38,526 nucleotides of DNA from Bdellovibrionales bacterium (lineage in GTDB: Bacteria; Bdellovibrionota_C; UBA2361; RFPC01): NCBI GenBank assembly GCA_020434565.1, contig JAGRAO010000005.1, positions 1 through 38,526 of the forward strand, read 5' to 3'. The first letter of the stretch is position 1. The number at the start of each line of letters is the position of its first letter. A model generated the notes under the pieces. That model made no database searches. It had not been told where the DNA came from and was given only the letters and a program-made list of their open reading frames with translations. Shown piece after piece: positions 3,241 through 38,266 of the stretch. Made by a program: the position numbers and the translations under genes.

Positions 3241-3253
3241 GATGATTCCACTT

Positions 3254-7338: not shown

Positions 7339-7367
7339 AAGAGAACCTCACCTGTAACCAAACATAC

Positions 7368-8299: not shown

Positions 8300-9659
8300 C
8301 TGGGTCCAGCACTTCTTCACCAGCCTCGGGCTCTTCGGTAACCTCAACATCGTCGGCGACAGAGGACTGACGCTCCCCTCTACGAGCACTCCCTTGAAGT
8401 TTCTGCCCTTCGAGCTTAGCGGGATCAACCTCTAAGACTCTTCCGTTCTCCTCTGAGACAAGTAGAGTTCCGGACGGGAGAAAGAACAGCCGACGAGCAT
8501 CGAGAAAAAGGCTCTCACTCGAAAGCTCAAGAGAAAAATCATTCTTTTCTCTAAGTGGATTCTCTTTTTCGGCCACTCTCCAGAAGCGCAAAACACCATC
8601 GCGGCCGAGAGATGCAATCAGCGCTCTCTGAGGTGAATAAACAACATCACGAACCAGCCCGCTGTGAGCTACCATCCTCGTCAACAACTCTGGACCACGA
8701 ACCCGCCAAAGCTCTAACGCTCCGGTGTCGGTAGAGAGGAGAAATTCCTCTCTCCCAACCGCTACGATCTTTTCAATTCTCTCAGCTTTCCCGCGAGAAA
8801 CCTTCCGCCGGAGAGCTTCTCGTGTAAAGAATCCGATATCGAAGAGATCGTCATCGGGATAGGGTTGCTCACTTCCTTCGTCATAGGGCAACCAGATACT
8901 GACCCCTCCAGCCCAATCGCCGGAGAAAAAGGCTCTCCCATCAGGATGAACCAGAAGGGCACTCACAACTGTCCCGTGACCGAGATACCTCTCGATGTTT
9001 CGAGAGTCCGGACCACCAGAAGAACGAAACGAAAGATTCCACCGATAAATCTTGCCATCAGCTCCACCGAGTAGAACTCGCGGGCGAAAAGGATCAAGCT
9101 CCGCAGATGCTGCACGAGTCCGAATCACGTTCGTCTCGACCACCATTTTTTTTTCGAGAAGACCCCACACCTGGATTGCCGAACCGTTCTGAACAACGAG
9201 GAACGGGAGTTCCGTCTGGGTTGGAATCACCTTTGCATTGTCGGGGAGGGACATGTACAGACGGGAGTCACCAGACGCCAAATCCCACAGATAAACTTTC
9301 CCCTCGTTTGAAACACTCCAAAATGCGACCGGGCTCGGTCCCTCTTGCGAAGCTCCACTTATTGGAACGAGTACGATCTGAACCGAAGCGGCTGAAGGGT
9401 GTTCTGACGGAAGAGCTTCGCGCCAACTCTTGACTTTGTTCGGTGTACCCCTGGACCTTTTGTAGAGCAGATCCCAGTTCGCTTCATCGGAGGACAAAGA
9501 ATCACGGGACGGAGAGTCAGCGGGCACCGGATTGAAACTCTCTGGAACAAACCCCTCAAGCGAACCGCATCCTCCCAAAAGCAAAAGGACAACAAGGGCC
9601 GCACCTAAGTTCCGCCAAGATACTGGGAATAATGGCTTTTTCCTGAACTGCCCAGTCAT
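8271..9659 (-). CDS. WD40/beta-propeller-repeat lipoprotein
   Basis: ATG at 9657-9659 with AAGGGGAAAA upstream. The signal peptide carries lipobox LLLLGGCGS. Repeated ...W(D/N)L / ...VSIW / ...LELWRV / ...LRFWRV blade-like motifs. Acidic C-terminus. Confidence 0.65.
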   Translation of the reverse strand: MTGQFRKKPLFPVSWRNLGAALVVLLLLGGCGSLEGFVPESFNPVPADSPSRDSLSSDEANWDLLYKRSRGTPNKVKSWREALPSEHPSAASVQIVLVPISGASQEGPSPVAFWSVSNEGKVYLWDLASGDSRLYMSLPDNAKVIPTQTELPFLVVQNGSAIQVWGLLEKKMVVETNVIRTRAASAELDPFRPRVLLGGADGKIYRWNLSFRSSGGPDSRNIERYLGHGTVVSALLVHPDGRAFFSGDWAGGVSIWLPYDEGSEQPYPDDDLFDIGFFTREALRRKVSRGKAERIEKIVAVGREEFLLSTDTGALELWRVRGPELLTRMVAHSGLVRDVVYSPQRALIASLGRDGVLRFWRVAEKENPLREKNDFSLELSSESLFLDARRLFFLPSGTLLVSEENGRVLEVDPAKLEGQKLQGSARRGERQSSVADDVEVTEEPEAGEEVLDPDEIQEGSSW

Positions 9660-10037
9660 TGATTTTCCCCTTAACCCCCTCACCGACGAGGGCTGGCAAT
9701 AAGCCCCGTATACGCTTGAAAGTAATAGCCTTCCTGGGGCACTATGCCAGTCTCACATGTAAACAGAAAGTCCAGTGCAAGGACGACATGTGAGGGAACT
9801 CAGCGAAACCGTCTTCCACTGATTCTTTAAGAGCGGAAGACCAATGATCTGGGGCCTTGCATTTAGGGAACATGCATTAAAGGAAAGGAAGGGGCTAAAC
9901 AGCGCCGCTCTTCCGGGAAGACTTGTAGCTATATCGAGAGACAAGCGTCGAGTTTAAAGGCGGTGGTTACTCAACCCCGAAAAGCAGCTCGACGAGGCCT
10001 CGTAAGACAACCATTCCATTATTACAGGAGAAACAAT

Positions 10038-16633: not shown

Positions 16634-18301
16634 TCAATTCGAACCTGATTTATCATCTTCCATAAGAGCTCGAATGGCCTTAAAGGCCTGTGTCTGAATC
16701 TGACGAATCCGCTCACGCGAAAGCGGTTTACTATCAAGGGGGCTCTGAACTCCCATACCGAATAGATACGCAGCAGTTTCATCAAGAGTGAACTCTCTAT
16801 CTTGATTGTTCAGGCCAAACCGGAGTCGCAATACAAGTTGAGGTATCGGCTCAAGTTGATCGAGATAGTGGCGCATTTCAATACCAATTAACCGCCGTTC
16901 TTCAGACAACCGAGAACCTTCAAACGCTTCCCGACCATCCAAGAGACTAAAGGTCTCATTTGACTCAGATCCCGGCTGCTCTTCGCTCAGAATTCTCGAG
17001 GCCGCAGCTCCACGCAATTGAGCCACATGGCGAGCAGTCAATCGAAAAGAGGTTCCCTTGCCGACTTTCTCCTTCTTTTTCTCCAGTTCTCGAGAAGCTT
17101 GAACGATCTGCTGGTCAGTCGGATCCCGTTCTCCTTGCATTTCCAAGTATGCGATCGCCCCACGTATCTTCCCCATAATGAGGTACGCATGGCGTGGCAC
17201 TCTCACGAGCGAAGCTTCATCTGATACACAGTTTCCGACTTCTTTGCGAATCCATTGTGTCGCCATAGTGGAAAATTTGTATCCTTTTTCTGGGATAAAC
17301 TGCCGTACTGCCTCTACCAGCCCTCCATTTCCAGCAATGATGAGGTCAATCAACGGCACACCGCGATCGGCATATCTCTTTGCGATTGAAACAACGAGAC
17401 GCAAGTTTGACTCGGCGAACTCTTCTACAAATGGCTCGATTCTCCGTTCAAGCGAATTCAGTTGGCGCATAAGCCGTTTGAATTCATTTGGCTCGATGCC
17501 GTTCATAGCTTTCCATTGAACAAAGCCCGCTAAGAGGGCTCGGCCTTCTCGCGCACCTTCTTCAGAAAGTTCGGCAAAGACCTCTACCTCTCCCCTCTGA
17601 ACTCGCTCAAGACCTTTTGAAAATGTTGCACGAGAGATATGAGCCCTTTTACAAAAAAGATTCCGTCGTTCATCGAGTTCTTTCAGCGCGCGAAGTGCGC
17701 TATCGGCGATATTTCGACAACTTCGAAATTCCGAGTAGGTCATCAAGCTCCCGAGGTCAGGATCCATCATGATCTCTTTCTCACGTTTGGGAGAAAACCG
17801 AGTGCGATAGTCGGGCTCGAGAGCACCGGTCGGGCAAGCAAGAGTGACCTCAATTCCTTTCGTTTTCTCAAATTCACGCTTTTGAACAGAGTAGCGACGT
17901 TCGACTAATTCCCGGGCCTGCGGGGTAAGTGGTCTCCGCCCCGCTGCCGGATGAAGTAACTCGTGAAGAGCTGGTAAGTATCGGAGCATCAGCTGATGCT
18001 GTTGAAATGTTATCTGTCGAATCCTCGCTCCCAAGCGGAGCTCATCTTGGCGAGTGAGAAGGGGTCGTGACCCCGAAATTCTCGTCAGATCTCGAATAAA
18101 GGCCTGAAATTCACCTTCATATCCTGACTTTGGCGGAACAAGTGCTTCGAATTCATTATTTTCGGGATTTCTCTCCGCACGAGCAGGCAGCCTCGCACTT
18201 CCGAAGATCTGGGCTGCTGATTGTTGTGTGCCGTTTAAGTGCGGCCCCTTTTCTATCATTCTTTCTCGACAAAAGGGGCTGAATACGGCCCCGCTCCCCA
18301 T
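16634..18301 (-). CDS. RNA polymerase sigma-70 family factor (RpoD-like: long N-terminal region, regions 2, 3 and 4)
   Basis: Region 2: NLRLVVSIAKRYADRGVPLIDLIIAGNGGLVEAVRQF...GYKFSTMATQWIRKEV. Region 4: LSRERIRQIQTQAFKAIR. ATG at 18299-18301. Confidence 0.8.
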   Translation of the reverse strand: MGSGAVFSPFCRERMIEKGPHLNGTQQSAAQIFGSARLPARAERNPENNEFEALVPPKSGYEGEFQAFIRDLTRISGSRPLLTRQDELRLGARIRQITFQQHQLMLRYLPALHELLHPAAGRRPLTPQARELVERRYSVQKREFEKTKGIEVTLACPTGALEPDYRTRFSPKREKEIMMDPDLGSLMTYSEFRSCRNIADSALRALKELDERRNLFCKRAHISRATFSKGLERVQRGEVEVFAELSEEGAREGRALLAGFVQWKAMNGIEPNEFKRLMRQLNSLERRIEPFVEEFAESNLRLVVSIAKRYADRGVPLIDLIIAGNGGLVEAVRQFIPEKGYKFSTMATQWIRKEVGNCVSDEASLVRVPRHAYLIMGKIRGAIAYLEMQGERDPTDQQIVQASRELEKKKEKVGKGTSFRLTARHVAQLRGAAASRILSEEQPGSESNETFSLLDGREAFEGSRLSEERRLIGIEMRHYLDQLEPIPQLVLRLRFGLNNQDREFTLDETAAYLFGMGVQSPLDSKPLSRERIRQIQTQAFKAIRALMEDDKSGSN

Positions 18302-21586: not shown

Positions 21587-22912
21587 ATGGCGACAGAAAT
21601 AAAAATGCCCCAGCTCAGCGATACGATGGATTCGGGCAAGATCCTTACGTGGAACAAGAAAGAGGGGGATACGATTTCTCGTGGTGACATTCTTGCCGAA
21701 GTTGAGACGGATAAAGCAAATCTCGAGATTGAGTCGTTTCACGAAGGGACACTTTTGAAGATAGTTACCCCAGCTGACAACAGTGCCAACGTGGGTGAAG
21801 TCATTGCGTACATTGGTGATCCTGGTGAAAGCGTCGGTTCAAGTTCTTCTGCAGCAAAATCTTCAAGCTCGCCTGCGCCAGTTTCAGAGAGTCCATCGAC
21901 CGGGAACGTGAGTCAGGACCCGGCACCTCGCAACGGCTCTTCAAATGGTTCAAGCGAGTATCACACCGGCAAAACCTCAGAATCGACGATCAAGAGTGAA
22001 GGAAGGATAAAAGCCTCTCCGGTGGCCAAAAAGTTGGCTGAGCAAAACAATATTGATCTCGCATCCGTGAGAGGAAGTGGTCCTGACGGACGAATCGTCA
22101 AACGAGACGTTGAAAGCTTGGGCGCTGATGTTCAAGCCGCGCAGAATCTTCACACCCCTGCGCCCCAAAGAGGCCGACCCTCTTCGTCGAACCAGCCTCA
22201 GCAATCCTCCGGAAGCGCAACCGCCGAAGGAACGCTCACACCGCTTTCAAAGATGCGGGATACGATTGCAAAGCGCATGCAGCAGAGCGTGAACGAAGCT
22301 CCTCACTTTTACACCACGGTCTCTATTGAGATGGATTCGGTTATCAGCCTTAGAGCGCTTCTGAAAGAGCGAGGGATAATTGAGGGGGTGAGCTTGAACC
22401 ACTTTATTATCAAGGCTGCTGCATACGCCCTCGCCCACGAGCCTCGGGTGAATCGAGCGATAAGGGATGGGAATCAGGTATTTGAACCGTCGTCTATTAA
22501 TATCGGGGTCATCACAGCTCTCAACGATGGACTCATCATCCCCGTGCTTCACGAAGTAGACAAAATGTCACTCAGTGACGTCGTATTTGAGTCCCGAGCG
22601 ATGATTGAGAGAGCTCGAGCCGGTCGGCCGACAGCTCGAGATCTCTCTGGCGGCACATTTAGTATTTCGAACATGGGGATGTTTGACGTGGAGAGCTTTA
22701 CCGCGATTATCAACCCGGGTCAGGGTGCGGTTATCGCAATTAGTGCTACGAAAGAGCAACCGATAGTGAAGGATGGGGTCATTCAGGTGGCTCAGATTAT
22801 GAAAGCCACACTTTCGGTTGATCACCGGGTGATCGACGGGGTGATGTCAGGGAACTTTCTCAAGTTCTTCAAAGAAGGCTTGGAGTATCCAGCGCTTCTC
22901 ATGGCATCGTGA
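21587..22912 (+). CDS. 2-oxo-acid dehydrogenase complex E2 dihydrolipoamide acyltransferase (one lipoyl domain, E3-binding domain, catalytic domain)
   Basis: Lipoyl-lysine motif EVETDKANLEIES. Peripheral-subunit-binding domain KASPVAKKLAEQNNIDLASVRGSGPDGRIVKRDV. Catalytic DHRVIDG. Ser/Pro-rich linkers. Confidence 0.85.
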   Translation: MATEIKMPQLSDTMDSGKILTWNKKEGDTISRGDILAEVETDKANLEIESFHEGTLLKIVTPADNSANVGEVIAYIGDPGESVGSSSSAAKSSSSPAPVSESPSTGNVSQDPAPRNGSSNGSSEYHTGKTSESTIKSEGRIKASPVAKKLAEQNNIDLASVRGSGPDGRIVKRDVESLGADVQAAQNLHTPAPQRGRPSSSNQPQQSSGSATAEGTLTPLSKMRDTIAKRMQQSVNEAPHFYTTVSIEMDSVISLRALLKERGIIEGVSLNHFIIKAAAYALAHEPRVNRAIRDGNQVFEPSSINIGVITALNDGLIIPVLHEVDKMSLSDVVFESRAMIERARAGRPTARDLSGGTFSISNMGMFDVESFTAIINPGQGAVIAISATKEQPIVKDGVIQVAQIMKATLSVDHRVIDGVMSGNFLKFFKEGLEYPALLMAS

Positions 22913-23139: not shown

Positions 23140-24105
23140 ATGACCATAAAAGTTCCCCGCTCTCAACAGACGATGAAAGAGCGTCTCGTAAAACCAGCTT
23201 GGTTAAAGGTCAAAGCTCCAGGCTCTCCCGAATATATGAAGACAAAAGAGGTGGTCAAAGGACTTGCCTTGAATACCGTTTGCGAGGAAGCGCACTGCCC
23301 AAACATCGGTGAGTGCTGGTCGCATCGAACTGCGACTTTCATGATCATGGGCGAACTGTGTACTCGCCGATGTCACTTTTGTTCAGTAAAGGACGGTACC
23401 GACGAGAATCTCGAACCTTTAGACCCTCTCGAACCTCATCGAGTCGGAATGGCCGTTAAGAAACTTGGCCTCAGACATGCCGTGATAACTTCAGTCGACA
23501 GAGATGATGTAGCAGATTTTGGGGCAAGCCATTTTGCACGCACGGTCGAGTCGATCCGGCGTCACGCCCCAGAGTGTAAGATCGAACTCCTCATACCTGA
23601 CCTCCGGGGCTCTCGAGAAGCTCTCTCCACTATTCTCGATGCCGGAGTCGATGTCCTGAATCATAATGTTGAAACAGTTCCTCGACTGTATAAGCGCGTT
23701 CGACCAGGTTCTGGCTATATTCGCTCCTTAAGCATTTTGAGGTGGGCTAAAGAACGTAGCCCCTCAGTAAAGACGAAGTCGGGAATTATGGTTGGTCTCG
23801 GTGAGGCTCCGGAGGAGGTCCACGCCCTCATGGATGACTTACGTTTTTGCAATGTCGACATCATGACCATAGGTCAGTATTTAAGACCGACTGAAAAACA
23901 GATGCCCGTGAGGGAATTCGTGACTCCAGAGGAATTCGAAAACTATCGAATGATTGGCCTGTCAAAAGGCTTTCAATTTGTTGAATCTGGCGCTCTCGTG
24001 AGAAGTTCGTATCATGCTTGGAAGCATACATCTCCAGAGCCACTCGCTGAGGTTGAAGGCCACGATTCGAACGAAAGGAACACTCGGACCACTCTTTCTG
24101 CCTAG
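23140..24105 (+). CDS. lipA: Lipoyl synthase (radical SAM)
   Basis: CEEAHCPNIGEC (auxiliary cluster) and CTRRCHFC (radical-SAM CxxxCxxC). GAGGAG RBS 6 nt upstream of the ATG. Confidence 0.9.
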   Translation: MTIKVPRSQQTMKERLVKPAWLKVKAPGSPEYMKTKEVVKGLALNTVCEEAHCPNIGECWSHRTATFMIMGELCTRRCHFCSVKDGTDENLEPLDPLEPHRVGMAVKKLGLRHAVITSVDRDDVADFGASHFARTVESIRRHAPECKIELLIPDLRGSREALSTILDAGVDVLNHNVETVPRLYKRVRPGSGYIRSLSILRWAKERSPSVKTKSGIMVGLGEAPEEVHALMDDLRFCNVDIMTIGQYLRPTEKQMPVREFVTPEEFENYRMIGLSKGFQFVESGALVRSSYHAWKHTSPEPLAEVEGHDSNERNTRTTLSA

Positions 24106-24267: not shown

Positions 24268-27200
24268 ATGACGGGACAACGGAAAAAGCGTGGCATTCGA
24301 TTGGCGGTATGGGGGCTCGTTCTCGGCGTTCTCTTCGGCACCGGCGTCCGCTTGCTTGAGCGATTCATCGCATCATCGCTTATCGATCTTCTCCGCGATG
24401 AAGCTCGAGCTTCTTGTGCCTGTGACTTTCAAATCGACTCAATCAAGATGTCACTCTTGACCATGAGCGCTCGAGCAAAAAACGCGCGTGTGCTTTTCAA
24501 CGGCAAACCGGCTCTGACCGTTAAGAATCTGCGAGCAACATTTAGACCTTTCGAGCGGATTCTCAAACGAAAAATAGTTCTCAAACATCTCCTCCTTGAT
24601 GACATAGACGTCGACGGAGTCGGGGCTGAAAGTGGAACGTTTCTGTTTATTAACCATCTCGCGGAACCGCTCGATCCCTCAAAGGATCACCCGCTCAAGT
24701 TTACCGTTTCACTTATGAACATGACAGTTCAAAACGCGCACGTACAACAACATGTAGGAGGGGCAAAGGTTGAGGGATTCGATGTCGGGCTCACGTATCA
24801 GAGAGACGACTCTGACAATCTCGTGTTACATCCACATGCTGCAAAACTTGTTTACGCCTCTTCAGAAGAGGAGCCAATTGAACTTGGGCAACTTGAAAGC
24901 GAACTGTATATTACCGACGACTCGATTGAATTTCGTACGCTTGCTTTACAGGCTCAAGACATCCTCTCTCAGGTTACCGCCACAGTCTTTCCACAAGATG
25001 GACACCGACTCGAAGGGAAATTATCAGTAAAGGTTGGAGAGAAAGCGAAAGTCTTTCCTCCTTGGCTCAGCGTTCCACTTTCGGCTCAGGCCGATCTCGG
25101 GGGAACTTTCTCGTCTCCGACTGCTGAAGGATCCTTTCAGATACCCGCAGACCATTCTGCCCGCATCCAGATCTCAGAGACGCCGCTTTTGGAGTTTCAG
25201 CAGGGAGCAGGTTCATTTTCCTTCAACGAGCACTCTGGACTTGAAGTCCCCACCCTCTCCTTTTCGGGGCCAACGACTGAACTTCATCTTCAGGAACCCC
25301 TGGTACTTCAGGGCGACACGGCACGTGGAGCCGCCCGCTTTCAGCTCCAGGAGCTCCGACTCGGACAAACCGTCATCGGCGATATCGATCTCGTTGCCAA
25401 GCTTGAGAGTACTCCTCAGAATTCGCTTGCGGTTTCAATCGGCGGAACGGTAGGACGTGTTCAGGGCTTTGACTACAGAACCCCGCCGGTTTCTCTTAGA
25501 GCAACCGTGTCGTCTGAGAAGTTCAAAGTTTCTCTCTCTCATTCGAGCCCACAATTTGGTGCTTTTTCAATTCAGGGAGATGGATCTCTTCAGGGCGGTC
25601 CTGAGAGTAATCAATTCCAATTTCAATTCGAAAACTTTGCTATACCGAAAGTTCTCGAATCACGTTTGGACAGCGAATCAGATCCACTTCGAATCTCTGG
25701 CTCGGGGGCCCTCTCAGGTGGCCTCTCACTCTCGGATCTCAGCGGCGCCGCAGAGATATCACTGTCTTCCCCTGACTTTTCTGGTGAAGCAGCCTTGAGA
25801 GGAGAAGCCACACTCAAAAATCAAAGAGTTTCACTCCAAATCGGTAACGACTCAAAATCGATAGAGGCATCTCTCCAGTTGCCCCTCGATGAGACAGTCT
25901 CGGAACGAGGCCTCCTTCATCTCGAACTTCGAGATTTCCGTCCCCAGGAGTACGACCCAAGTCTCAGTTGTATTCTGCTCGATCTCAGTGCCGATTATTC
26001 CTTTGAGGCCGTAGCCCCCTGGGAGGGCGAGGGCAATGTGGAACTCCGGAAGGCCACTGTCGGATGTTCTCCCCATACGTTGGGCCTCTCAGCCCCAGCT
26101 TCCCTTTCGATCAACCTCGGCTCGATTCAGTTACGTGACCTCCTCTGGAAAGGTCGAGATGCAGGCTTACGTATTTCAGGAACGGTTGGAATCCCTGAAG
26201 GATACGATCTCGCCTTGAGTGGTGAGATCGATCTCGAGAGCCTCCTGCCTTACGCCTCTTCGATAGATGACTTGCGAGGAAAGACACTCATTCAGGCTCA
26301 TGTGGGCGGCTCCTTCGAAGCTCCCCGTTTCGGGGGAAGTGCGAAAATCGAGGGGGGTGAACTCTCTCTTGAGAAAGCGAATATGAGCCTCTCTCATGTC
26401 GAAGGCACTCTCGAAATAGAGCCGGAACGGATAAACATCCGCGATATCTCCGGCACGCTCAACGGGGGATCCTTTAATCTCTCCGGTGAAGTCTTTCCGT
26501 TTACCTTAGAGCATTCAAACCTCGGTCTTTCGTTTCAAGACTTTTTCATAGAGCCGGAGAGCGAGTTGCAGGCCTCACTCTCGGGAGAACTCTTTCTCAC
26601 CCAGGGGGAGGCAGATCGACCTGCTCTCGCTGGAACGGTAACGGTAGATTTTGCAGAACTGAAAAAAAGTTTTGATCTCCTCTCGTTGCTACGCTCTCTC
26701 CCGTCTTATCTCCTTTCAAATTCAAAAACTCGTGAAAGCACCTCAACTCAAAACCTTCCAGCGGTAGACCTTGATGTAAGAGTCAAAGCCGACAGAAATG
26801 TCTTTATTCTTACAACCTTCCTCGGTGCTGAACTAAACGGTGACCTCTATGTTCGGGGGCAACTCTCCGACCCAAAAGTTATCGGCACGCTCCAGACGCT
26901 CAATGGCTGGTTCGGATTGCGGGATACTCGATTTCAAATAACGTCTGGCCAGGTTACGCTTGGAACTTTGCAACCTGAACCACAATTGGACGTTGTAAGT
27001 GAGACCTATGCCAGTAGCATTGGCGGAGATGACACACTCATTATTCTCGAGGCGAAGGGTCCACTCGATTCACCCAAGATAACGCTTTCCTCGAATCGAG
27101 GACTGACGCAGAACGAAATTCTTTCCCTCGTGAGTTCTGGCAGGGTCGGGATTCAGCAGGATGAATCCCGATTTTTCACTTCTGGTCTTCGACTGCAAGA

Positions 27201-29955
27201 GACGGAGGAGAAAGCCGAGGGGATCGAACGCCTCATTCAGCTCTTCCGAAGACTCACACGAATCGACAATATTACCGTCAATCCGAAGGTGAACAGTCGG
27301 CGCGGGACCGTTGAACCGGCGTTGCTGGCTGAGAAACATCTTCTTCCGCGACTCGATCTCCTTGGTGAAACCTTCTTGAGCGGGAGCGGTGATGAAGCAC
27401 TCCTGTCGTTGCGCTACGAACTCACTGACAAGCTCAATCTTTTAGGAACTGCAGATACCATTACTGCAGAGGATACAACCGCCCTCGGTGCTGACCTTGA
27501 ATACGTAATTCTTGAACGCCAAGGGACTCTCACGAATTATACCTTTACGGGTAATTCCTCTCTCTCAAGTAGTGAAATCCTCGAAGAACTCAGATTGTCC
27601 AAATTGTCACGCATCCAGATTTCATCCGTTCCCAATCTTGCAAACCAGGTAGTCGCACTCTATCGCGCGAGAGGATTTTTGCAGAGCACAGCTACAACAG
27701 CATGCTTAGACGGTCGATACTATTGCCGCTCAATCGGAATCAACATTGAAGAAGGTCCCATTTCAAAAATTGCAGAACTGCGATTTACGGGAGAGCCGCT
27801 ACCAGCTGATGCGGTAAAACCGCCCAAATCGCCCCAAGGAGACGAGGCGACATTCGAAACGAGAGACCGTTATGTGCAAGACCTTACCCGAGCACTGCGA
27901 ACGGAGGGATATCTTCAGGCCAGAGTGAACGCTGCATATGAAGCGGTAGAGACCAAATCCAATGAGGTGTCTCTCACAATTGATCTCCGAACGGGGCCCC
28001 CGGTGAGTTTCATCTTTGAGGGAAACACGGTCTTTAGTGCAGAGGATTTCCTCAAAACGATTAACCTCTTTGATAGAAAGCTGCCTTTCGGAAACAACAC
28101 TATCCACATTCTCATAGAGAATATGGATAAACTCTACAGGGGGGCTGGCTATCTGTTTGCGACCATTCGCTTTGAAAAAGAAACGGCACCCGATACCAAG
28201 AGAACGACCTATCGGATCACTATTTCAGAGGAAAAGTCAGCTGCAGTATCCCAAGTGCAGTTTCTCGGAAACTCCTCTTTTCCTGGAGAACAGCTCAGAG
28301 AACTAATTGCAAACAATCCGGACAAAGAGCTTGTCGCCGAGATTTTTACTCCAAAAGTCGCCGTCCTCGAGGACCTTCAAGCACACGCTCAGCTTTTGGA
28401 AGGCGTGTATGAGGAGCAGGGATTTCCGGAGGTCTCGATTGAGCCGGGAATTGTGCCTGATCCAAATGAGCCGGTGGTAAGAATCACTTATACGGTTCAC
28501 GAGGGCTTTCGACAAATTTCCCAAGACATTCAGGTTCAAGGGTTTCCATCGGCAATCGTGCTCCCCTCCCTCCCCGCGGCTCCTTACTCCATACCTAAGG
28601 TGAATCGCTACATCCTTACTCTTCTTGATCGCCTGAAAGCGGCGGGGTATATACACGCCCAGATTCGCTCAGAGTGGTCTGAACAGGTCGCACAGATATT
28701 CGTTAAACCAGAAGCTCGTCATTCTCTCCGAGAGGTCATACTTCGCGGAAATCAAGAGATCGCAAGTGAAGTCATATTGTCTCAGCTCCGTCTCACGAAG
28801 GGCATGGCGTGGGATGACGAGGTGCTTGCGGAAGCTCGTCGACGATTGCTTCGACTCGGCGTCTTTTCCCGGGTTTCCTTCCAACGTGACGAAGTTACCC
28901 CAGACGAATCAGACCTTATAGTCAGGCTGAGTGAGCGACCCCTTCAAACCTTGGAGCTTGGCACCGGGATCAACTCTGAATTCGGTCTTCATCTGTTTGG
29001 AGAGGCCACCGACCGATCGCTGTTCGCAGATGGTCGAACGCTCTCCCTGCGATTCGATACCTACTACGACGATACCAAGGCCGAAATTTCACGTGGTTTA
29101 GCGAGTCTTCGATTCGTTGACCCGAGCCTCTTTGAAGAACGATATGTCTTTAGTAACGAACTTCGATACCAAAAGCTCAATCTCTCAACCCAAGAGTTCG
29201 ATCTCGACCGCATATCCTTTCTGACCTTTCTCTTTAGGGATTTTTCTCATGGGTTAAGCGGAAACCTCGGCCATACAATCTTTCAAGAAGACCTCAACGA
29301 CGTCAGTCCGGGAGCTGTCATTGGAGATTTTGATGAGGGAGTTGTCGACTTGAGCATCCTCTCCGGTAACCTGCTCTATGATCAGAGAAGCGATCCCCTG
29401 AATCCTCTTTCGGGATACCGCCTTCGCTTTGATTGGAGTCTCTCAAGCAAAGCGATTGCATCTGATGCAGACTATTTTTCGTTCGGAGGACAAGGAAGTT
29501 ACACCCTTCCTTTTGAAGCTCGCCAAGAACGTTTTGCATTGGCCACTCGCTTGCTTGGAGCCTCAGCCTGGACCTTTGGGGGTACGGATGAGATCCCAAT
29601 TAGTCAACGGTACTATGCCGGAGGTCGAAATACGGTGCGCGGATTTCGCGAGAACTCTCTCGGACCGAGAGGTTTTGACGGTGCAGTGATCGGGGGAGAT
29701 CTCGTTCTGACTTCAAACAACGAATTTCGATACTTTCTGAACGATGCCCTCTCGACACACCTCTTTTTTGACCTCGGAACAGTATTCCTCAAAGAGGAAT
29801 CAACGGATCTTCACAATCTCAGACGGAGCACGGGAGTTGGCATTCGATACCTCTCGGCAATTGGACCGATTGGCTTTGACATCGGTAAACCTCTAGACGA
29901 AAAGGAAGGAGAGCCGTCCGTTCGAGTTCACTTTTCACTCGGCACAAATTTTTGA
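24268..29955 (+). CDS. Giant 1,895-aa envelope protein: TamB-like (N-terminal signal-anchor + AsmA/DUF490 beta-taco, ~aa 1-1085) fused in frame to a POTRA-repeat + Omp85/BamA-type 16-strand beta-barrel (~aa 1090-1895)
   Basis: N-terminus KKRGIRLAVWGLVLGVLFGTGV is a signal anchor. TamB C-terminal signature: VRGQLSDPKVIGTLQTLNGWFGLRDTRFQITSGQVTLG...LTQNEILSLVSSGR...ALLSLRYELTDKLNLLGT. Several POTRA-like units follow (ISKIAELRFTGEP, VSQVQFLGNSSFPGEQLRELI, SLREVILRGNQEIASEVILSQLRL). The Omp85 barrel has YYAGGRNTVRGF and a terminal ...VHFSLGTNF. There is no stop codon over 5,688 nt. Confidence 0.75.
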   Translation: MTGQRKKRGIRLAVWGLVLGVLFGTGVRLLERFIASSLIDLLRDEARASCACDFQIDSIKMSLLTMSARAKNARVLFNGKPALTVKNLRATFRPFERILKRKIVLKHLLLDDIDVDGVGAESGTFLFINHLAEPLDPSKDHPLKFTVSLMNMTVQNAHVQQHVGGAKVEGFDVGLTYQRDDSDNLVLHPHAAKLVYASSEEEPIELGQLESELYITDDSIEFRTLALQAQDILSQVTATVFPQDGHRLEGKLSVKVGEKAKVFPPWLSVPLSAQADLGGTFSSPTAEGSFQIPADHSARIQISETPLLEFQQGAGSFSFNEHSGLEVPTLSFSGPTTELHLQEPLVLQGDTARGAARFQLQELRLGQTVIGDIDLVAKLESTPQNSLAVSIGGTVGRVQGFDYRTPPVSLRATVSSEKFKVSLSHSSPQFGAFSIQGDGSLQGGPESNQFQFQFENFAIPKVLESRLDSESDPLRISGSGALSGGLSLSDLSGAAEISLSSPDFSGEAALRGEATLKNQRVSLQIGNDSKSIEASLQLPLDETVSERGLLHLELRDFRPQEYDPSLSCILLDLSADYSFEAVAPWEGEGNVELRKATVGCSPHTLGLSAPASLSINLGSIQLRDLLWKGRDAGLRISGTVGIPEGYDLALSGEIDLESLLPYASSIDDLRGKTLIQAHVGGSFEAPRFGGSAKIEGGELSLEKANMSLSHVEGTLEIEPERINIRDISGTLNGGSFNLSGEVFPFTLEHSNLGLSFQDFFIEPESELQASLSGELFLTQGEADRPALAGTVTVDFAELKKSFDLLSLLRSLPSYLLSNSKTRESTSTQNLPAVDLDVRVKADRNVFILTTFLGAELNGDLYVRGQLSDPKVIGTLQTLNGWFGLRDTRFQITSGQVTLGTLQPEPQLDVVSETYASSIGGDDTLIILEAKGPLDSPKITLSSNRGLTQNEILSLVSSGRVGIQQDESRFFTSGLRLQETEEKAEGIERLIQLFRRLTRIDNITVNPKVNSRRGTVEPALLAEKHLLPRLDLLGETFLSGSGDEALLSLRYELTDKLNLLGTADTITAEDTTALGADLEYVILERQGTLTNYTFTGNSSLSSSEILEELRLSKLSRIQISSVPNLANQVVALYRARGFLQSTATTACLDGRYYCRSIGINIEEGPISKIAELRFTGEPLPADAVKPPKSPQGDEATFETRDRYVQDLTRALRTEGYLQARVNAAYEAVETKSNEVSLTIDLRTGPPVSFIFEGNTVFSAEDFLKTINLFDRKLPFGNNTIHILIENMDKLYRGAGYLFATIRFEKETAPDTKRTTYRITISEEKSAAVSQVQFLGNSSFPGEQLRELIANNPDKELVAEIFTPKVAVLEDLQAHAQLLEGVYEEQGFPEVSIEPGIVPDPNEPVVRITYTVHEGFRQISQDIQVQGFPSAIVLPSLPAAPYSIPKVNRYILTLLDRLKAAGYIHAQIRSEWSEQVAQIFVKPEARHSLREVILRGNQEIASEVILSQLRLTKGMAWDDEVLAEARRRLLRLGVFSRVSFQRDEVTPDESDLIVRLSERPLQTLELGTGINSEFGLHLFGEATDRSLFADGRTLSLRFDTYYDDTKAEISRGLASLRFVDPSLFEERYVFSNELRYQKLNLSTQEFDLDRISFLTFLFRDFSHGLSGNLGHTIFQEDLNDVSPGAVIGDFDEGVVDLSILSGNLLYDQRSDPLNPLSGYRLRFDWSLSSKAIASDADYFSFGGQGSYTLPFEARQERFALATRLLGASAWTFGGTDEIPISQRYYAGGRNTVRGFRENSLGPRGFDGAVIGGDLVLTSNNEFRYFLNDALSTHLFFDLGTVFLKEESTDLHNLRRSTGVGIRYLSAIGPIGFDIGKPLDEKEGEPSVRVHFSLGTNF

Positions 29956-29961: not shown

Positions 29962-31722
29962 TTAAGCTACCTTTGAGATTTCAGCATTCTCTGGGGAGTT
30001 CACGGCTGGGAGGGGAACCGCTTTGGGGGAGTCTTTTCCCTTGCTTCGCTCGAGTTCCCACAACTTGACGTATTTTAAAAATGTGTAAAAAGCTTCAGCG
30101 ACGGCTACCATGAACCCGATGCCTCCTTCTCGATAGCCACGCTTGAGAAGAAAGAATTTCATCCATCGAAACGGTGGTCGCAATACAATCTTTGCAAGAC
30201 TGCTTCGGGTTCCCTGCTGATACATCGCTTCGGCAGACTGACTCGAAAAGCGGTTCAACGTCGCTATAAGATCCGAAAAGTTCTCATAGGTATAGTGAAA
30301 GAGGTGACCCGCCAACTTCGAGGTATTCCCACACACTATTGCCTTCTCGTGCGGGTTCACTCCACCCCACTTCGCCAGTTTTCTTCGAAAGAACCGCATG
30401 CGATATTCCGGATGCCATCCTCCCTGATCCCACCATCGGTCTAAGAACCGAACAACCCGGCAAAGAAAGTAGCCATCACTCACTGCTTGTCCGTGAAAAT
30501 CCTCCGCGAGGATTCTCCCGATATTCCCCTGCAGCTCAGTCGAGAGTTCTTCGTCCGAATCGAGATTTAATACCCAATCGTAAGAGCACTGTTCCAATGC
30601 AAACTGCTTCTGTTCTCTGTGGCCGGGCCAGTGACGCTCAATCAAACGAACCCGTGGATACCGCCGACAAATCTCAAGAGTTCGATCGGTAGAGCCACTA
30701 TCGACAATAACCAATTCATCACACCACGAGATTGAGTCTAAACAACGAGCGATGTTCTTCTCTTCATTCTTACAGATGACAAAGGCAGATATACGAGAAC
30801 GGTTGAGCTGACTCGGAGTAAGTCCATCCTGAAGGACACGAAAGACCTCTTCAGGTGACGTTTCTTGCGCGGGTGAGAGAATGTCAAGAGTCGAACGAAA
30901 CGGTGCCCAACGTTGCGGATGCATCGAGCGATTTCCTGGATAAATTCCCACTCCAGCGAGCCCAATAGCTGAAGCAAGATGAGTGATACCCGTTGAGGGA
31001 CCGATATACTTCTTCGCTCTCGAGAGAAGCCCCAACACTTCATCCAGTTTCTGAAGCCGTACAAAGTGAAGCCGTTCAGAATCTTTGAGAATTTTCGGAA
31101 ATTTTTCGAAGAGGCCTTTCTCAGCCGGTCCGGCAAGTACAACAACATCAAGTTCGAGCTTCGCTCTCACGAGTTCAATCAAGGCAAACCACTTATCTAA
31201 AGGCCACGCGACGGCTGAAACACTCGCACCAGGCATACAAACCAGGTACGGACGATCTGTGGGTGAGGCATTCGTGATGACTCGAAAGTCTTCGAGAGAG
31301 AGCCTCTCTTTCAATCTCCTATTCTTCAACGCAGGATCAACAAGCGTTAAGAGCTGCCAATTGTATTCTGCTTCATTGAGGAGAGCTCTTGAGCGGCGAA
31401 TATATCTCCGATCAGTGTAGAGCGCGCTAAACCAACGGGCAGAATTTCCTACTCGCTTCGGCACCCGCTGACCGAAGTAATGCGCTGCCGTGCGCCACTT
31501 GGCCATCAGATCTACCACGACATCAAATTCACCCCGCGCAATCGGGTCCCCGAAAGTGTGCACCCCATCAATGAAGGACACATTCTCAACGAGCGGACGG
31601 GTATACGGACTAACATCAAAGTAGATCTCAGCCGAAGGAAGGAGAGCCTTGAGCTGCTTGGCTCCGTGAAGAGCTAAAACAACGTCTCCGATTTTATCAG
31701 GCCGGGATATAAGTACTCTCAC
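29962..31722 (-). CDS. Bifunctional glycosyltransferase: N-terminal GT9 (ADP-heptose:LPS heptosyltransferase-like) fused to C-terminal GT2 family glycosyltransferase
   Basis: GTG start with GAGGAAAAG upstream. N-terminus MRVLISRPDKIGDVVLALHGAKQLK is the GT9 start. The C-terminal half has ISAFVICKNEEKNIARCLDSI...LVIVDSGSTDRT and DSDEE (GT2 DxD). It is convergent, 6 nt from the giant gene's stop. Confidence 0.7.
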   Translation of the reverse strand: MRVLISRPDKIGDVVLALHGAKQLKALLPSAEIYFDVSPYTRPLVENVSFIDGVHTFGDPIARGEFDVVVDLMAKWRTAAHYFGQRVPKRVGNSARWFSALYTDRRYIRRSRALLNEAEYNWQLLTLVDPALKNRRLKERLSLEDFRVITNASPTDRPYLVCMPGASVSAVAWPLDKWFALIELVRAKLELDVVVLAGPAEKGLFEKFPKILKDSERLHFVRLQKLDEVLGLLSRAKKYIGPSTGITHLASAIGLAGVGIYPGNRSMHPQRWAPFRSTLDILSPAQETSPEEVFRVLQDGLTPSQLNRSRISAFVICKNEEKNIARCLDSISWCDELVIVDSGSTDRTLEICRRYPRVRLIERHWPGHREQKQFALEQCSYDWVLNLDSDEELSTELQGNIGRILAEDFHGQAVSDGYFLCRVVRFLDRWWDQGGWHPEYRMRFFRRKLAKWGGVNPHEKAIVCGNTSKLAGHLFHYTYENFSDLIATLNRFSSQSAEAMYQQGTRSSLAKIVLRPPFRWMKFFLLKRGYREGGIGFMVAVAEAFYTFLKYVKLWELERSKGKDSPKAVPLPAVNSPENAEISKVA

Positions 31723-32207
31723 CTTTTCCTCGAGATAAATTTGGTCCCTGTAAAATTACGAGAGGGTCATACAGAGAATCTCGCCCGAGATCTCTAAAGT
31801 CGTACGATCAAACCCCGTACGGTCTCCCTCTTAACGACTTTCGACCAACGAAAAGTATTCGTGTGCTTTGGACAGGCCGACTCCGTTTCGACCGCTTTCA
31901 GCCGCCAAAAGTATAAATTGGTCACCGAGTATACCTACTCAGAGGTTCGAAGCTACTGGGAGACGAGAAATTACCCCTTTTTTTGCCGGGGCGACAAGCA
32001 CATAAAAATTAATATTGTTAGTTAGTTAGCTAGCTTTCCCCCAGACCCTCTCCCTTTTGGGTCTGGCAAACCACGTTTTTTGTACCCTCGCCACAGCTCC
32101 CTGCATCCTAACTTACCAGAAAGGGTTATTCCCGTTCTACCGACCGGAAGTGTGTGTGGTTCAATGACGAAAAAAATGGGTTACTTCCGGGATTTAAGAG
32201 GTTGGAC

Positions 32208-33257
32208 ATGGAAAAGCAGGTGATAATATTTGCAAATGGTGCTGAGAAGGGTCGAGTGGAGGAGATAGCCAATCTCTCTCCTATGAGCTCAGTGCTGATA
32301 GTTGACGATAGCAACAGAGGGTTCAGCCTCCCTGAGGGCGCACAGACGACCAATTCACAGGATTTTTTCGGCACACGAATAGCTGAGCTTGAATCAACTC
32401 GTTGTGCCGCTATCGTGATCGACGCAGCGTGGGATATCGAAATTGCCTCTCTCGGGCCGGTACTTGAAGAAGCGAGCCGATCAGACGAGAACACTGTCAC
32501 GATCTTCCCCTTAAGCCACGGAGAGGAGATTCAATTCTCGCAAGATCTCACGATTGACACTGCGATCAACCTCTGTCACCCGCAGCAAGCCTGGCCAGTA
32601 GGGACAGCCGCTATCTGCTCGTCGACGTTTGAATCCATAAAGGAGCCTGAGAATTGCTCTCAGTTTATTGGACAAGCGATTCTTGCCGCACTCAGCATCG
32701 GGTGTAGCCTTCGACTTGGAGCGAATACCCTTGTTCTCAAAAAATCTTCAGAATGGAAGGGGACTCTCTCTCAAAGAGATCTCTCCGCACTTCTCAAGTA
32801 CGCTGTTGGGACGCTCAATATCGAAGAACTCTTCCCAAATCACTCATGGCAGACTCATCAAGAAGAGAGTGCGGCTGCTTGTTATCACACTCTAGCGGCA
32901 ATGTTCTTGAAATTTAATGACCTTGAGGCTGCCAAAGAATGTCTCTCTTTCGGAGATCAACTTGAAGATAGTCCTCGATCATTGGCTCTTAAAGGACTGA
33001 TCGCACTGACAGAAGGAGAAACCCTGACGGCAGTGGCGAATATGGTTTCAAGTCTTCAAGAGTATGAAAAGCGAAAAAAGTCGACTTCACAGCACTATCT
33101 CGCTTTTCAACCTCGGGATTTGGAGCAAATCAATACGAGTCTTCAGAGCGGACTTTCAGCTTTGAATGAGAGAGACAACGACCTTGCGATGAAACATTTC
33201 ACAAGCGCTGTTTTCAACTTCGACCAATTCTATCTCGATATTGGTCTCTCTCAGTAG
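32208..33257 (+). CDS. Hypothetical protein (N-terminal alpha/beta region, C-terminal TPR-like helical region)
   Basis: ATG at 32208 (MEKQVIIF) with AAGAGG upstream. Transcribed divergently from the GT9-GT2 gene across an AT-rich 480-bp intergenic region. Confidence 0.45.
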   Translation: MEKQVIIFANGAEKGRVEEIANLSPMSSVLIVDDSNRGFSLPEGAQTTNSQDFFGTRIAELESTRCAAIVIDAAWDIEIASLGPVLEEASRSDENTVTIFPLSHGEEIQFSQDLTIDTAINLCHPQQAWPVGTAAICSSTFESIKEPENCSQFIGQAILAALSIGCSLRLGANTLVLKKSSEWKGTLSQRDLSALLKYAVGTLNIEELFPNHSWQTHQEESAAACYHTLAAMFLKFNDLEAAKECLSFGDQLEDSPRSLALKGLIALTEGETLTAVANMVSSLQEYEKRKKSTSQHYLAFQPRDLEQINTSLQSGLSALNERDNDLAMKHFTSAVFNFDQFYLDIGLSQ

Positions 33258-36022: not shown

Positions 36023-38266
36023 TTGGAAGTTACATCTGATTCTAAACTATCCGCTCAACGTCGCTTGGTTCAAACTACCGGGTGGCTTGCTCTGGTGGTC
36101 GGGTACTTTTTTATCCTCTCTGGTCCGGTCGGCTTCTGGAGTCATTCGACCGTGGTCATCCAACACGGAGGAAAAGTCGGAGCTGTCCTCCTGGCGATCG
36201 GGGCGCTTCTCTTTGTGGTACAAAGACACAGCATCCTCCATGATCCAGTACCTGTGACCTTGCTGGGGCTCACCCTCAGTCTCTTTTTCTTCTCCGGCTG
36301 GCATGAGTACAGCTACAATTTGATTCAAGGGCCTACGACTCGGGGCGAACTCCTTTTCTTCGGATTCTGTGGATTCTGTATCGCAAAATGGAGTCCTCCG
36401 AAGCTCCAAACACTTCTCTTCTTTACCCTTGGTTCTCTCGCCTTGTTGATTGGGATTTTTTTCCTTTCAAGCAGAGGCGAGATCCTCTTTTCAGACGATA
36501 ACCCGACATTTCTTTACCGTCTGATCCTTCTGAACCAGAATTTTCCGTTTATTCCGTTCTACAATCCCTTGTGGAACGCCGGGATGGAAGCTCGAGACTT
36601 TTTCGCTACCGGGGCCCTTAATGTTTACTTACTCAGCACCCCTCTCCTGGTCTTCTTGGAACCTCAGACTCTCTACCGTTTTATTCATCCAACCTTGCTC
36701 TTTCTCTTTCTCCCAATTTGCATCTATTACGCCGCTCGACTCTTTGAACTCCCAAAGTCGTCAGCACTTCTCTCGTCTGTTCTCGCAGTAGCAGGGAATC
36801 TCGCATGGTACCGATGGTCGCTCCAATACGGAACTCTCGGGTTTGTCACGAGCAGCGCGCTTGTGCCTCTCGTGCTCGGAGTAGTCTATCGCTTCTTGAG
36901 TACCGACATTCGACTACCGTTGGCAGTCGCGGCAGTTTTTCTCACAACACTCATGTTGTTTTGGACACCTACTGGCCTGATTTTTGTACCTGCATTTTTG
37001 ATCGGACTTACCCTTCTGCCAAAACTGCTTCGTAAGACCTATTTCGTGCCTGTAATTGTTGTACTCGCCCTTCTCAACCTGCCCTGGATCGTGCTTTTCT
37101 GGTCGGCCTCTGGTGTAGGTTCATTTCTTTCATCAGAGGCGCCGAGCTTCGCTCAACAGGCGGAAATGGCAGAAGCCAGTCAGCTCTCCGACGCTCCCAA
37201 GAAGAGCCCTCCTTCCTCCTCTCACAAATCGTATAAAACCAAAAAAGAACCTCTTTCATTGCGGGGGATCTTTCGACTTATTCGTGAGGCGGCTGTTCCG
37301 ACCAATCCACTCATTCTTCTCTTTGGGGCCGTGGGAATACTTTTGCTTCGACCACTGGCGCGCCTGACATATCTATTTACGGGAACGTGGCTCGTCTTTC
37401 TCGGAGGGGTGATAGCACTTTTGAAACCTCAGCTCGAGCTCGATCGAATGCTCGTGATCCTCACGCTTCTCTTGAGCATCCCAGCCGGTGCAGTTTTTGG
37501 AGTACTGTGGGAGGAAAGAGCCGGGCTCTGGAGGAAGGTTGGTTTCGGAATCGCCTTCGCTTACCTCGTCGTTGGACTACTTTCTGTTGGCAGTATCCTC
37601 CTCGCACGGACACGAATTCCTATTTACTTCGAGGAACCGGAGGTAGTGAATCTCACGCGAGCAATTCAAGAGCATGCGAGAGAAGGAAGGGTTTTATTCT
37701 CCGGGTTTGTTCTTCACGAACTCAGTCACGGACACGTTGCTCCCTTAGCGGGCTTTACAGGAGTCCCACTCATGGCTTCGAGTCCAGTGCATAGCCTGTG
37801 GCGATATCAGCAGATTTTTCCCGCGGAATTCCTTCACCGAGGAGAGAAGGGAATCCTTGAGTATCTCGGCCTTTTCAATGTCTCAGCTGTTACAGCTCAC
37901 GAAAGATACTGGAAAGAATATTTTCTCGATCGACCAGACTTCTTTCACCTCGAATGGAAAGGTAAGCGATTCTGGCTCTTCTCGGTAACTCAGTTTCAAG
38001 ACTCATATTTTTTTACTGGATCCGGTAGGGTCCTTTTTCAGAACTCCTCCAGTATTCGTGTAAGAATAGATTCTCCATCAGCGGTGCTTAAGTTTCGGTA
38101 TCTCCCCTTTCTTACCTCCACAGGTTGCCAACTGCGGGAAAAGGACGTTTCTCCTTCGGTATCCTTTGTGGAACTTTTTGATTGTCGACCGGGAGAAACG
38201 GTTGAGATTCGAGCTCTTGATCCGATTCACAGGCTTTCGTCTTTCATGGAGAAATCAGGCCGATGA
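36023..38266 (+). CDS. Large polytopic membrane protein (>=12 TM; GT-C/YfhO-like glycosyltransferase-fold candidate) with ~250-aa C-terminal soluble domain
   Basis: Continuous 747-codon ORF, TTG at the track start. No internal ATG for ~190 codons, so the start is uncertain. There are many hydrophobic helices. Its stop overlaps the next gene's start (ATGA). Confidence 0.55.
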   Translation: MEVTSDSKLSAQRRLVQTTGWLALVVGYFFILSGPVGFWSHSTVVIQHGGKVGAVLLAIGALLFVVQRHSILHDPVPVTLLGLTLSLFFFSGWHEYSYNLIQGPTTRGELLFFGFCGFCIAKWSPPKLQTLLFFTLGSLALLIGIFFLSSRGEILFSDDNPTFLYRLILLNQNFPFIPFYNPLWNAGMEARDFFATGALNVYLLSTPLLVFLEPQTLYRFIHPTLLFLFLPICIYYAARLFELPKSSALLSSVLAVAGNLAWYRWSLQYGTLGFVTSSALVPLVLGVVYRFLSTDIRLPLAVAAVFLTTLMLFWTPTGLIFVPAFLIGLTLLPKLLRKTYFVPVIVVLALLNLPWIVLFWSASGVGSFLSSEAPSFAQQAEMAEASQLSDAPKKSPPSSSHKSYKTKKEPLSLRGIFRLIREAAVPTNPLILLFGAVGILLLRPLARLTYLFTGTWLVFLGGVIALLKPQLELDRMLVILTLLLSIPAGAVFGVLWEERAGLWRKVGFGIAFAYLVVGLLSVGSILLARTRIPIYFEEPEVVNLTRAIQEHAREGRVLFSGFVLHELSHGHVAPLAGFTGVPLMASSPVHSLWRYQQIFPAEFLHRGEKGILEYLGLFNVSAVTAHERYWKEYFLDRPDFFHLEWKGKRFWLFSVTQFQDSYFFTGSGRVLFQNSSSIRVRIDSPSAVLKFRYLPFLTSTGCQLREKDVSPSVSFVELFDCRPGETVEIRALDPIHRLSSFMEKSGR

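Follow-up and report, generated by a model that had tools for sequence, protein, structure and literature searches.

A TamB-like protein and a six-POTRA, BamA-like Omp85 barrel joined in a single reading frame in a Bdellovibrionales bacterium

The window analysed here is a stretch of 38,526 nucleotides from a Bdellovibrionales bacterium (assembly GCA_020434565.1, contig JAGRAO010000005.1, positions 1 to 38,526, forward strand), and it contains a gene in which a protein resembling TamB, the groove-forming partner in TAM (short for translocation and assembly module), is continuous with a POTRA-bearing outer-membrane barrel of the Omp85 superfamily. In known systems these two parts are separate proteins. 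The parts of the gene are given below in window positions, with residues numbered in amino acids (aa); the sources named are Kyte-Doolittle hydropathy, Pfam profiles, Foldseek searches and AlphaFold2 (AF2) models, the latter read with DSSP where so stated.

24268..29955, + strand: the whole fused gene, 1,895 aa plus stop, with the TamB-like part, six POTRA and the Omp85 barrel in one frame
24292..24357, + strand: signal-anchor (transmembrane) helix, aa ~9-30, with RKKR before it (Kyte-Doolittle, AF2)
24424..27093, + strand: beta-taco, or repeating beta-groove, aa ~53-942, of the TamB type and predicted to form a periplasm-spanning lipid groove (AF2, Foldseek)
26446..27504, + strand: DUF490, the TamB C-terminal domain PF04357, aa 727-1079, essentially complete (Pfam)
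27109..27516, + strand: end of DUF490, with two helices (aa 948-957 and 984-997) and then six beta-strands (aa 1001-1009, 1014-1026, 1029-1036, 1044-1051, 1056-1065 and 1070-1083) (AF2 DSSP)
27517..27528, + strand: junction, the four residues QGTL leading from the last DUF490 strand to the first POTRA strand (translation)
27529..28935, + strand: six POTRA, aa 1088-1161, 1167-1241, 1246-1320, 1326-1411, 1420-1480 and 1486-1556 (AF2 DSSP, Pfam)
28945..29952, + strand: 16-strand Omp85 beta-barrel, aa ~1560-1895 (about 16 strands in AF2 DSSP; Pfam)

The open reading frame (ORF) begins with ATG and contains no internal stop in any of its 1,895 codons, as read from the ORF list and the translation. 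At ~50% GC the probability of such a frame staying open is (61/64)^1895, or ~1e-40, so that a chance origin is impossible. A preliminary description of this DNA, made from the letters alone, had proposed a single uninterrupted ORF joining both parts and had quoted motifs from the DUF490 end and from the barrel end; the translation bears this out, and ALLSLRYELTDKLNLLGT...LEYVILERQ, YYAGGRNTVRGF and VHFSLGTNF can all be read in it.

The TamB-like character of the first ~1,085 residues, also part of that description, is supported by profile, hydropathy and model alike. The match to PF04357 scores 104.4 bits against a cut-off of 22.4 (E 1e-29) and covers profile positions 3-377 of 381. In a Kyte-Doolittle scan with a 19-aa window, values of at least 1.6 are reached only by windows starting at aa 9 and 12, and the anchor is thus the sole transmembrane-like segment of the whole protein; an N-terminal feature of this kind is also present in homologues. 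The AF2 model of aa 1-1100 (mean predicted local distance difference test score, pLDDT, of 78) has a helix at aa 3-50 followed by unbroken strands up to aa 942, with many strand blocks of the taco at a pLDDT of at least 90. When this model was compared with PDB folds using Foldseek, the top matches were 9xdc_B (the TamB chain of the 'TamAB hybrid barrel state', E 1.3e-10), 9cap_A (LPD-3), 9xdd_B and 5vtg; 5vtg is the crystal structure of the TamB beta-taco, and LPD-3 is a eukaryotic bridge-like lipid-transfer protein. We also built a profile that runs from the C-terminal half of DUF490 through the linker to POTRA3 (the junction profile), and its positions 11-197 align with residues 1063-1248 of the 1259 of Escherichia coli TamB. 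The six strands that close DUF490 equal in number the six membrane-embedded TamB strands of the E. coli hybrid barrel (PMC13119328), and the last of them, TALGADLEYVILER, is amphipathic by sequence, its residues alternating between an L-A-L-Y-I face and a G-D-E-V-L-R face.

At the junction the two parts are joined in frame, as had been claimed, with neither a stop codon nor a signal peptide between them: within aa 1040-1180 the 19-aa hydropathy peaks at 0.74. A scan for promoter- and terminator-like sites found none at the junction, and none above shuffled expectation. The AF2 model of aa 700-1895, of the kind proposed in the preliminary description for this region, places the first POTRA unit four residues after the DUF490 strands; the strand at aa 1070-1083 is consequently internal, with POTRA1 following it, and not the free C-terminal strand of the TamB type. 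The region aligns without a break in 23 fused proteins (see below). The sequence of the linker varies between clades, and in the clade of the window protein it consists of four residues without a recognisable protease site.

The remaining ~810 residues form a POTRA and Omp85 part of BamA size, again as described earlier. All six POTRA are beta-alpha-alpha-beta-beta units, the first helix being reduced or missing in POTRA2 and POTRA5 (AF2 DSSP), and Pfam recognises POTRA_2 at aa 1088-1143, POTRA PF07244 in three stretches (E 1e-28) and also POTRA_1. The barrel is matched by Omp85 PF01103 at aa 1611-1895 (E 2e-46); it carries the loop-6 motif AGGRNTVRGF at aa 1784-1793 and closes with the beta-signal ...SLGTNF at the C-terminus, and G1785, G1786, R1791, G1792 and F1895 are invariant among the 23 fused proteins. 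The model of aa 700-1895 (pLDDT 73; predicted template modelling score, pTM, 0.44) has full-length BamA chains as its best Foldseek matches, with E-values down to 8.5e-42. By sequence, aa 1227-1579 align with residues 55-423 of E. coli BamA, from which it follows that the extra POTRA is the N-terminal one.

Among family-level models, the BamA equivalog TIGR03303 of NCBIfam is marginally passed over aa 1224-1895, with 302.2 bits against a cut-off of 297.15. A BamA is nonetheless expected to have five POTRA behind its own cleavable signal peptide; here there are six, with no hydrophobic segment and with 1,087 TamB residues ahead of them. TamL NF052279 scores 85.5 bits against 400, and the Omp85 part has no N-terminal lipoprotein signal. 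An identity as TamA or TamL can be rejected: the scores lie under the cut-offs, there are six POTRA as against three in TamA, and no lipobox is found. The same holds for TpsB / ShlB (PF03865), as ShlB reaches only 26 bits over aa 1734-1860, far below the Omp85 and BamA matches, and the protein has six POTRA, not two.

Fused proteins of this kind were found repeatedly in other assemblies. A protein search returned two full-length relatives, P0001 (1,896 aa, from an NCBI 'Bdellovibrionales' metagenome-assembled genome, MAG) and P0002 (1,911 aa), together with twenty further fused proteins, 2,013-2,334 aa long, of which one comes from an Acidobacteriota MAG. For P0002, three metagenome assemblies that are independent of one another encode the identical protein. 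A genome scan added a fused ORF of 1,907 aa, 41% identical, at locus L004 (MAG JAUIBK01), and a further fused protein, P0198 (1,897 aa), lies on contigs from two sources, one being a JGI/NCBI metagenome and the other a Logan assembly. The fusion is also carried by contigs of 2-3 Mb, those of P0190 and P0192. Thus P0001, P0002, L004 and P0198 are single ORFs of 1,896-1,911 aa at 33-42% identity. A database look-up gave no exact copy of the window protein on record.

The junction profile was then used against 1.84 billion cluster representatives (50% identity). Among the cluster representatives listed, all 150 of 150 matched profile positions 1-467 in one stretch at E <= 1e-135; of the 149 sequences that were new, 112 carry the TamB N-terminal region, DUF490 and the barrel, the remainder being contig-end fragments, and in none of the 112 full-architecture representatives is there a signal-peptide-like segment at the junction. 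The size of the family lies between these 150 clusters and the 3,791 matches obtained at E <= 1e-30, the larger figure being expected to include some unfused proteins. The taco differs in length within the family: that of the window clade is shorter, and fusions of the Acidobacteriota type have the junction at about aa 1,300-1,800.

The preliminary description had raised the possibility of a misassembly. We reject a misassembly, a missed stop or a frameshift as the source of the fusion, as one continuous frame runs through five syntenic orthologues and, across many independent assemblies, through 112 or more representatives with the full architecture; an internal start giving a separate Omp85 was likewise rejected, since its product would have no signal peptide. 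Comparative sequence data indicate that the fused gene is real, is under selection and has been maintained through divergence to 33-42% identity, and that the fusion recurs in well over a hundred uncultured lineages in at least two phyla, being common in Acidobacteriota-like and Bdellovibrionota-like ones.

The gene neighbourhood in the window is the one claimed before, with E2-lipA upstream and a convergent glycosyltransferase downstream:

21587..22912: E2 acyltransferase, upstream of the fused gene
23140..24105: lipA, upstream of the fused gene
29962..31722, - strand: GT9 (heptosyltransferase) plus GT2 glycosyltransferase, convergent, ending six bases past the fused-gene stop

At the loci of all four relatives (P0001, P0002, L004 and P0198) lipA lies upstream of the fused gene, separated from it by 0-7 ORFs that are small or belong to mobile elements; L004, L007 (GCA_020434465.1) and L008 also show E2 upstream, and the same unannotated genes follow the fused gene in L001, L004 and L008. 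In L001 the stretch that separates lipA from the fused gene (2335..9771) has taken up a DDE transposase, an AbiEii toxin-like gene and two AAA ATPase genes; as lipA is still found upstream, the linkage of lipA and the fusion outlasts the insertion of a mobile element. The convergent gene at 29962..31722 (-) is itself a two-domain fusion, of a GT9 heptosyltransferase-like region (aa 58-290) and GT2 (aa 311-395). It does not occur at the equivalent position in L001, L007 and L008, the loci with Pfam-annotated gene calls.

How much of this is new needs to be stated with care. No description of a TamB-Omp85 fusion was found in the full-text literature searched, in which few subscription journals are covered, so that this absence is not proof; nor is the fusion mentioned in a 2014 survey of the Omp85 superfamily, a 2015 paper on the evolution of the TAM or a 2024 TAM review. 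At the same time, members of the family are already in the databases under generic names such as 'TamB domain-containing protein' or 'outer membrane protein assembly factor BamA/...TamB'. The preliminary description had called the fusion an undescribed architecture, and had said that homologues forming a common annotated family would count against this. The first part stands in so far as no description was found; the existence of a large metagenomic family with generic names qualifies it, though that family is uncharacterised. The sequence family is therefore not new; what does appear new is that it is recognised as a single-chain TAM, distinct and conserved. Annotation pipelines mis-describe the family as either 'TamB' or 'BamA'.

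We propose an origin from adjacent genes. Separate genes in the order tamB -> omp85 are known as Bd2494/Bd2495 in Bdellovibrio bacteriovorus and also from Bacteriovorax and Myxococcus (PMC3983030), as well as from Spirochaetes, Negativicutes and other phyla (PMC4494059, PMC5007114); Bd2495, beside the DUF490 gene Bd2494, is an Omp85 with seven POTRA (PMC3983030). The fusion might have arisen when such a pair lost the tamB stop codon and the signal peptide of the Omp85, two losses that would give exactly the present architecture. At the metagenomic locus L006 a gene with a TamB domain stands directly ahead of a 954-aa POTRA and Omp85 gene that bears its own typical signal peptide, and at 2530..2540 the TGA stop of tamB and the TTG start of omp85 overlap by four bases (TTGA). 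Judged from these sequences, the split pair of L006 is plausible as a precursor-like state. Because the two genes are in different frames, their joining needs a frame-restoring indel and not a simple stop-codon change. The nearest unfused Omp85 relatives, that of L006 among them, are only ~25% identical to the fused protein. The ~1,900-aa clade of the window and the ~2,250-aa clade of the Acidobacteriota type may derive from one fusion event or from several.

We suggest that the fused protein is probably a covalent, TamAB-like module bridging the envelope. The polypeptide would be exported by Sec and held in the inner membrane by its uncleaved N-terminal helix; a TamB-type hydrophobic beta-groove of ~900 residues would cross the periplasm, and the complete DUF490 would end in six amphipathic strands, followed by four residues, six POTRA and, in the outer membrane, a BamA-like barrel of 16 strands. 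The E. coli TamB strand that carries the beta-signal, at the C-terminal end of DUF490, pairs with beta1 of TamA, giving a stable hybrid barrel with six TamB strands in the outer membrane; an amphipathic helix of DUF490 accompanies these strands, and the lipophilic taco holds phospholipid-like densities (PMC13119328). The models suggest that the window protein keeps the whole of this apparatus, that is the helices, the six strands and the amphipathic last strand. If E. coli TamAB, as a homologue, is taken as the guide, these six strands would most likely occupy the lateral gate of the barrel in their own chain, beside barrel strand 1, as a permanent hybrid barrel in cis. The six-POTRA array would form a closed periplasmic loop between two neighbouring strands, with 6 + 16 strands in effect. 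In outer-membrane barrels, the C-terminal strand of the substrate ends on the periplasmic side, which is also where beta1 of an Omp85 starts. With both ends periplasmic, the two points joined through the POTRA array would be neighbours, and a cis hybrid barrel is thus topologically natural. The groove would serve to carry phospholipids from the inner membrane to the outer one, and perhaps also to assist particular outer-membrane proteins (OMPs). Localisation, the cis hybrid barrel, lipid transport and an uncleaved product are all inferred; an outer-membrane pore of its own and a covalently tethered conduit, as put forward in the preliminary description, are a reasonable inference from homology.

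Several observations weigh against this view of a bridging module. The DUF490 part is only weakly similar to E. coli TamB in a single-sequence PDB search (E 0.048), and the protein falls far below the cut-offs of both the proteobacterial TamB equivalog NF047952 (37.5 bits vs 825) and TamA NF047950 (118.1 bits vs 625). Inter-domain confidence in the AF2 models is low (pTM 0.44-0.45). The strand of E. coli TamB that does the pairing is a free C-terminus; here it is internal, so that a POTRA array of 470 residues must fold back. The expression, size and localisation of the product are predictions from sequence, and the product may be cleaved after translation. Its proposed substrate, whether lipid or protein, is carried over by analogy from E. 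coli and Veillonella and does not come from the locus.

Other readings of the same data were considered. The fused protein could be the only BamA of the organism, combining general OMP insertion by BAM, the machinery for assembling beta-barrels, with a TamB bridge in one bifunctional polypeptide, as has been proposed for an ancestral TamB+BamA. We consider this unlikely. It would account for the passing of the TIGR03303 equivalog and for the fact that the best PDB matches, in sequence and in fold, are full-length BamA rather than TamA, and no other Omp85 gene occurs within the 38.5-kb window; lineages in which a single BamA is encoded beside tamB do exist (PMC4494059, PMC5007114). The TIGR03303 threshold is, however, passed only marginally, and the POTRA are six, not five. 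An extra POTRA has been linked to second, TamB-associated BamA copies that occur beside a canonical BamA in Acidobacteria (Heinz et al., PMC4494059), and in Bdellovibrio the Omp85 beside a DUF490 gene, Bd2495, has seven (PMC3983030). An Omp85 permanently bound to one TamB would also be an awkward general insertase. In proteobacterial genomes lpxD and rseP usually flank canonical bamA, whose product, an essential insertase of general use, works with BamD; skp is a further usual neighbour of bamA. Neither of these genes, nor skp, lies beside the fused gene in any of seven distinct loci, which were covered by gene calls or domain scans (L004 by an ORF list only); the TamB/BamA/Skp clusters do carry skp (PMC5007114). 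That the fused protein should be the sole Omp85 of its cell, a ~205-kDa polypeptide carrying out both OMP insertion and anterograde phospholipid delivery with a single-chain 22-strand hybrid barrel, seems to us distinctly improbable; if true, the bifunctional TamB+BamA machine that has been proposed as ancestral would still exist in it today.

The end of DUF490 might instead lie outside the barrel, with the POTRA arm extending a shortened taco (1,085 aa vs 1,259 aa in E. coli TamB), so that the protein would act mainly as a tether or spacer between the inner and the outer membrane, or as a device dedicated to the secretion or assembly of particular cargo. The very short linker between DUF490 and POTRA1 (4 aa), the lack of confident inter-domain packing in AF2 and the shorter taco of the window clade compared with the Acidobacteriota type are all in keeping with such an arrangement in series. 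The Bdellovibrio pair has moreover been linked to a polar TPR protein and to predation, with a role in secretion or assembly at the predatory pole proposed for Bd2494/Bd2495 (PMC3983030), and in the window clade a conserved ORF of ~340-367 aa, with a C-terminus that by eye seems helical and of TPR type, lies downstream of the fusion. This reading is nevertheless doubtful, and we would give it a low probability: the terminal DUF490 strands and helices, which form the hybrid barrel in E. coli, are fully kept and conserved, the last strand is amphipathic as a membrane-embedded strand should be, and if the hydrophobic groove stopped short of the membrane by the length of a POTRA arm, it is hard to see how it would deliver lipid. 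It is very improbable that the fusion is an artefact, or that the protein is cut after export into an ordinary TamB and Omp85, with nearly all the weight of this alternative on the cleavage. TamB and Omp85 are, admittedly, separate in the known systems. An artefact is effectively refuted by the comparative data given above, and an Omp85 half without a signal peptide could not be exported if translated alone; cleavage is argued against by a window-clade linker that has only four residues and no recognisable protease site, and by the lack of conservation of the linker sequence between clades.

When two proteins occur fused, this is classically read, in the 'Rosetta stone' sense, as a sign that they work together as one stoichiometric unit. 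The retention of the fusion across well over a hundred divergent lineages, in at least two phyla, argues that the contact between TamB and Omp85 is permanent and 1:1, and not a transient intermediate of assembly. Such permanence bears on the debate over the 'stable hybrid barrel' and 'non-hybrid' states of TamAB seen by cryo-electron microscopy. The fusion also supports a partnership of TamB with BamA-like, many-POTRA Omp85 proteins outside the Proteobacteria, and it places a topological constraint on any mechanism, in which the pairing strand of TamB and strand 1 of the barrel must tolerate being joined via a POTRA loop. It poses a puzzle of biogenesis as well: a protein anchored in the inner membrane has to get the barrel at its C-terminus into the outer one. 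A single-chain TAM would also be convenient for structural and reconstitution work.

Two further proteins are encoded downstream of the fused gene in several loci. One, of ~746-751 aa and with many hydrophobic stretches (polytopic by eye), is found at 36023..38266 (+) in the window, at 17730..19970 in L001 and at 19953..22208 in L004, the last two being distant orthologous loci. Over 672 aa the window copy shares 40% identity with that of L001, and Pfam gives no match even at E <= 1. The 782-aa genes at the equivalent position in L008 (18355..20703) and L009 (10202..12550) are possible further copies. This protein may be linked to the fusion or to envelope glycan work. The other is the ORF of ~340-367 aa mentioned above, which has no signal peptide and lies at 32154..33257 (+) in the window, 15851..16948 in L008, 16562..17578 in L001 and 8309..9349 in L007. 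Its C-terminal 160 aa are conserved, with 40% identity to the L008 copy, and are helical and TPR-like by eye; no Pfam match was obtained, relaxed scans of conserved neighbours included. Small TPR proteins, for which the Pfam evidence is only faint, stand beside fused genes of the Acidobacteriota type in L011 (GCA_028876655.1; 7627..8280) and L010 (18728..19318), and in Bdellovibrio the TPR gene bd2492 precedes the split pair (PMC3983030). A recurrent TPR partner of the fusion is possible.

Elsewhere in the window, an RpoD-like sigma-70 family protein of 555 aa (16634..18301, -) has a long N-terminal extension ahead of region 2, and its only close database relative, which is 100% identical, comes from a Logan SRA assembly; the organism of the window has therefore also been sequenced elsewhere. 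A WD40 beta-propeller protein of 470 aa (8271..9683, -) overlaps the region of the lspA gene (signal peptidase II) at its start, and in the first 7 kb several other ORFs are without a Pfam match.

Of the known systems, the proteobacterial TAM of E. coli and its relatives (9xdc, 9xdd, 5vtg, 4c00) shares most of its parts with the fused protein: a signal-anchored TamB beta-taco with a C-terminal DUF490 that ends in helices and six strands, and an Omp85 partner with POTRA and a 16-strand barrel. The TAM, however, consists of two polypeptides with the gene order tamA -> tamB, whereas the fusion is one polypeptide running from TamB to Omp85; TamA has three POTRA and the fusion six, the pairing strand of TamB is a free C-terminus and not internal, and the TamA and TamB equivalog hidden Markov models score far under their cut-offs in the fusion (118 vs 625 and 37.5 vs 825 bits). 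Closer in gene order, and in having a BamA-like Omp85 with multiple POTRA, are the tamB -> bamA/omp85 pairs (Bd2494/Bd2495, BMS_0139/0140, MXAN_5764/5763, Borrelia TamB-BamA, the TamB/BamA/Skp clusters of Negativicutes and Spirochaetes, and L006), and the closest named relatives of the window protein are themselves 'Bdellovibrionales' MAG proteins. These pairs differ in that the genes are separate and the Omp85 has its own signal peptide, with ~25% identity between the fusion and the nearest unfused Omp85, and in that the fusion locus has neither a TPR gene upstream nor skp downstream.

More distant parallels concern the principle rather than the parts. In TIC236-TOC75 a TamB-type groove bridges two membranes and docks on an Omp85, and the model of our N-terminal part matches the fold of LPD-3; the partners there are separate polypeptides, in a eukaryotic setting. 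Omp85 proteins with N-terminal extensions other than POTRA, such as the patatin-Omp85 PlpD or a WD40-like Omp85 that has been likened to a BamA-BamB fusion, resemble the present protein in that a partner- or cargo-like module is fused to the barrel (Heinz & Lithgow 2014). TamB or DUF490 is in none of the ten classes listed in that survey, in which DUF490 is never named and TamB appears once, as the partner of TamA (Heinz & Lithgow 2014). Veillonella parvula has a trans-envelope MlaD (PMC10665443) from a family that is not related, with an MCE domain, a helical bridge and a non-Omp85 barrel, and its proposed direction of transport is opposite to that of TamB (PMC10665443). In overall plan it is nonetheless alike, with an inner-membrane lipid domain, a periplasmic bridge and an outer-membrane beta-barrel of its own in one polypeptide, and this arrangement is widespread and has been proposed to be ancestral (PMC10665443).

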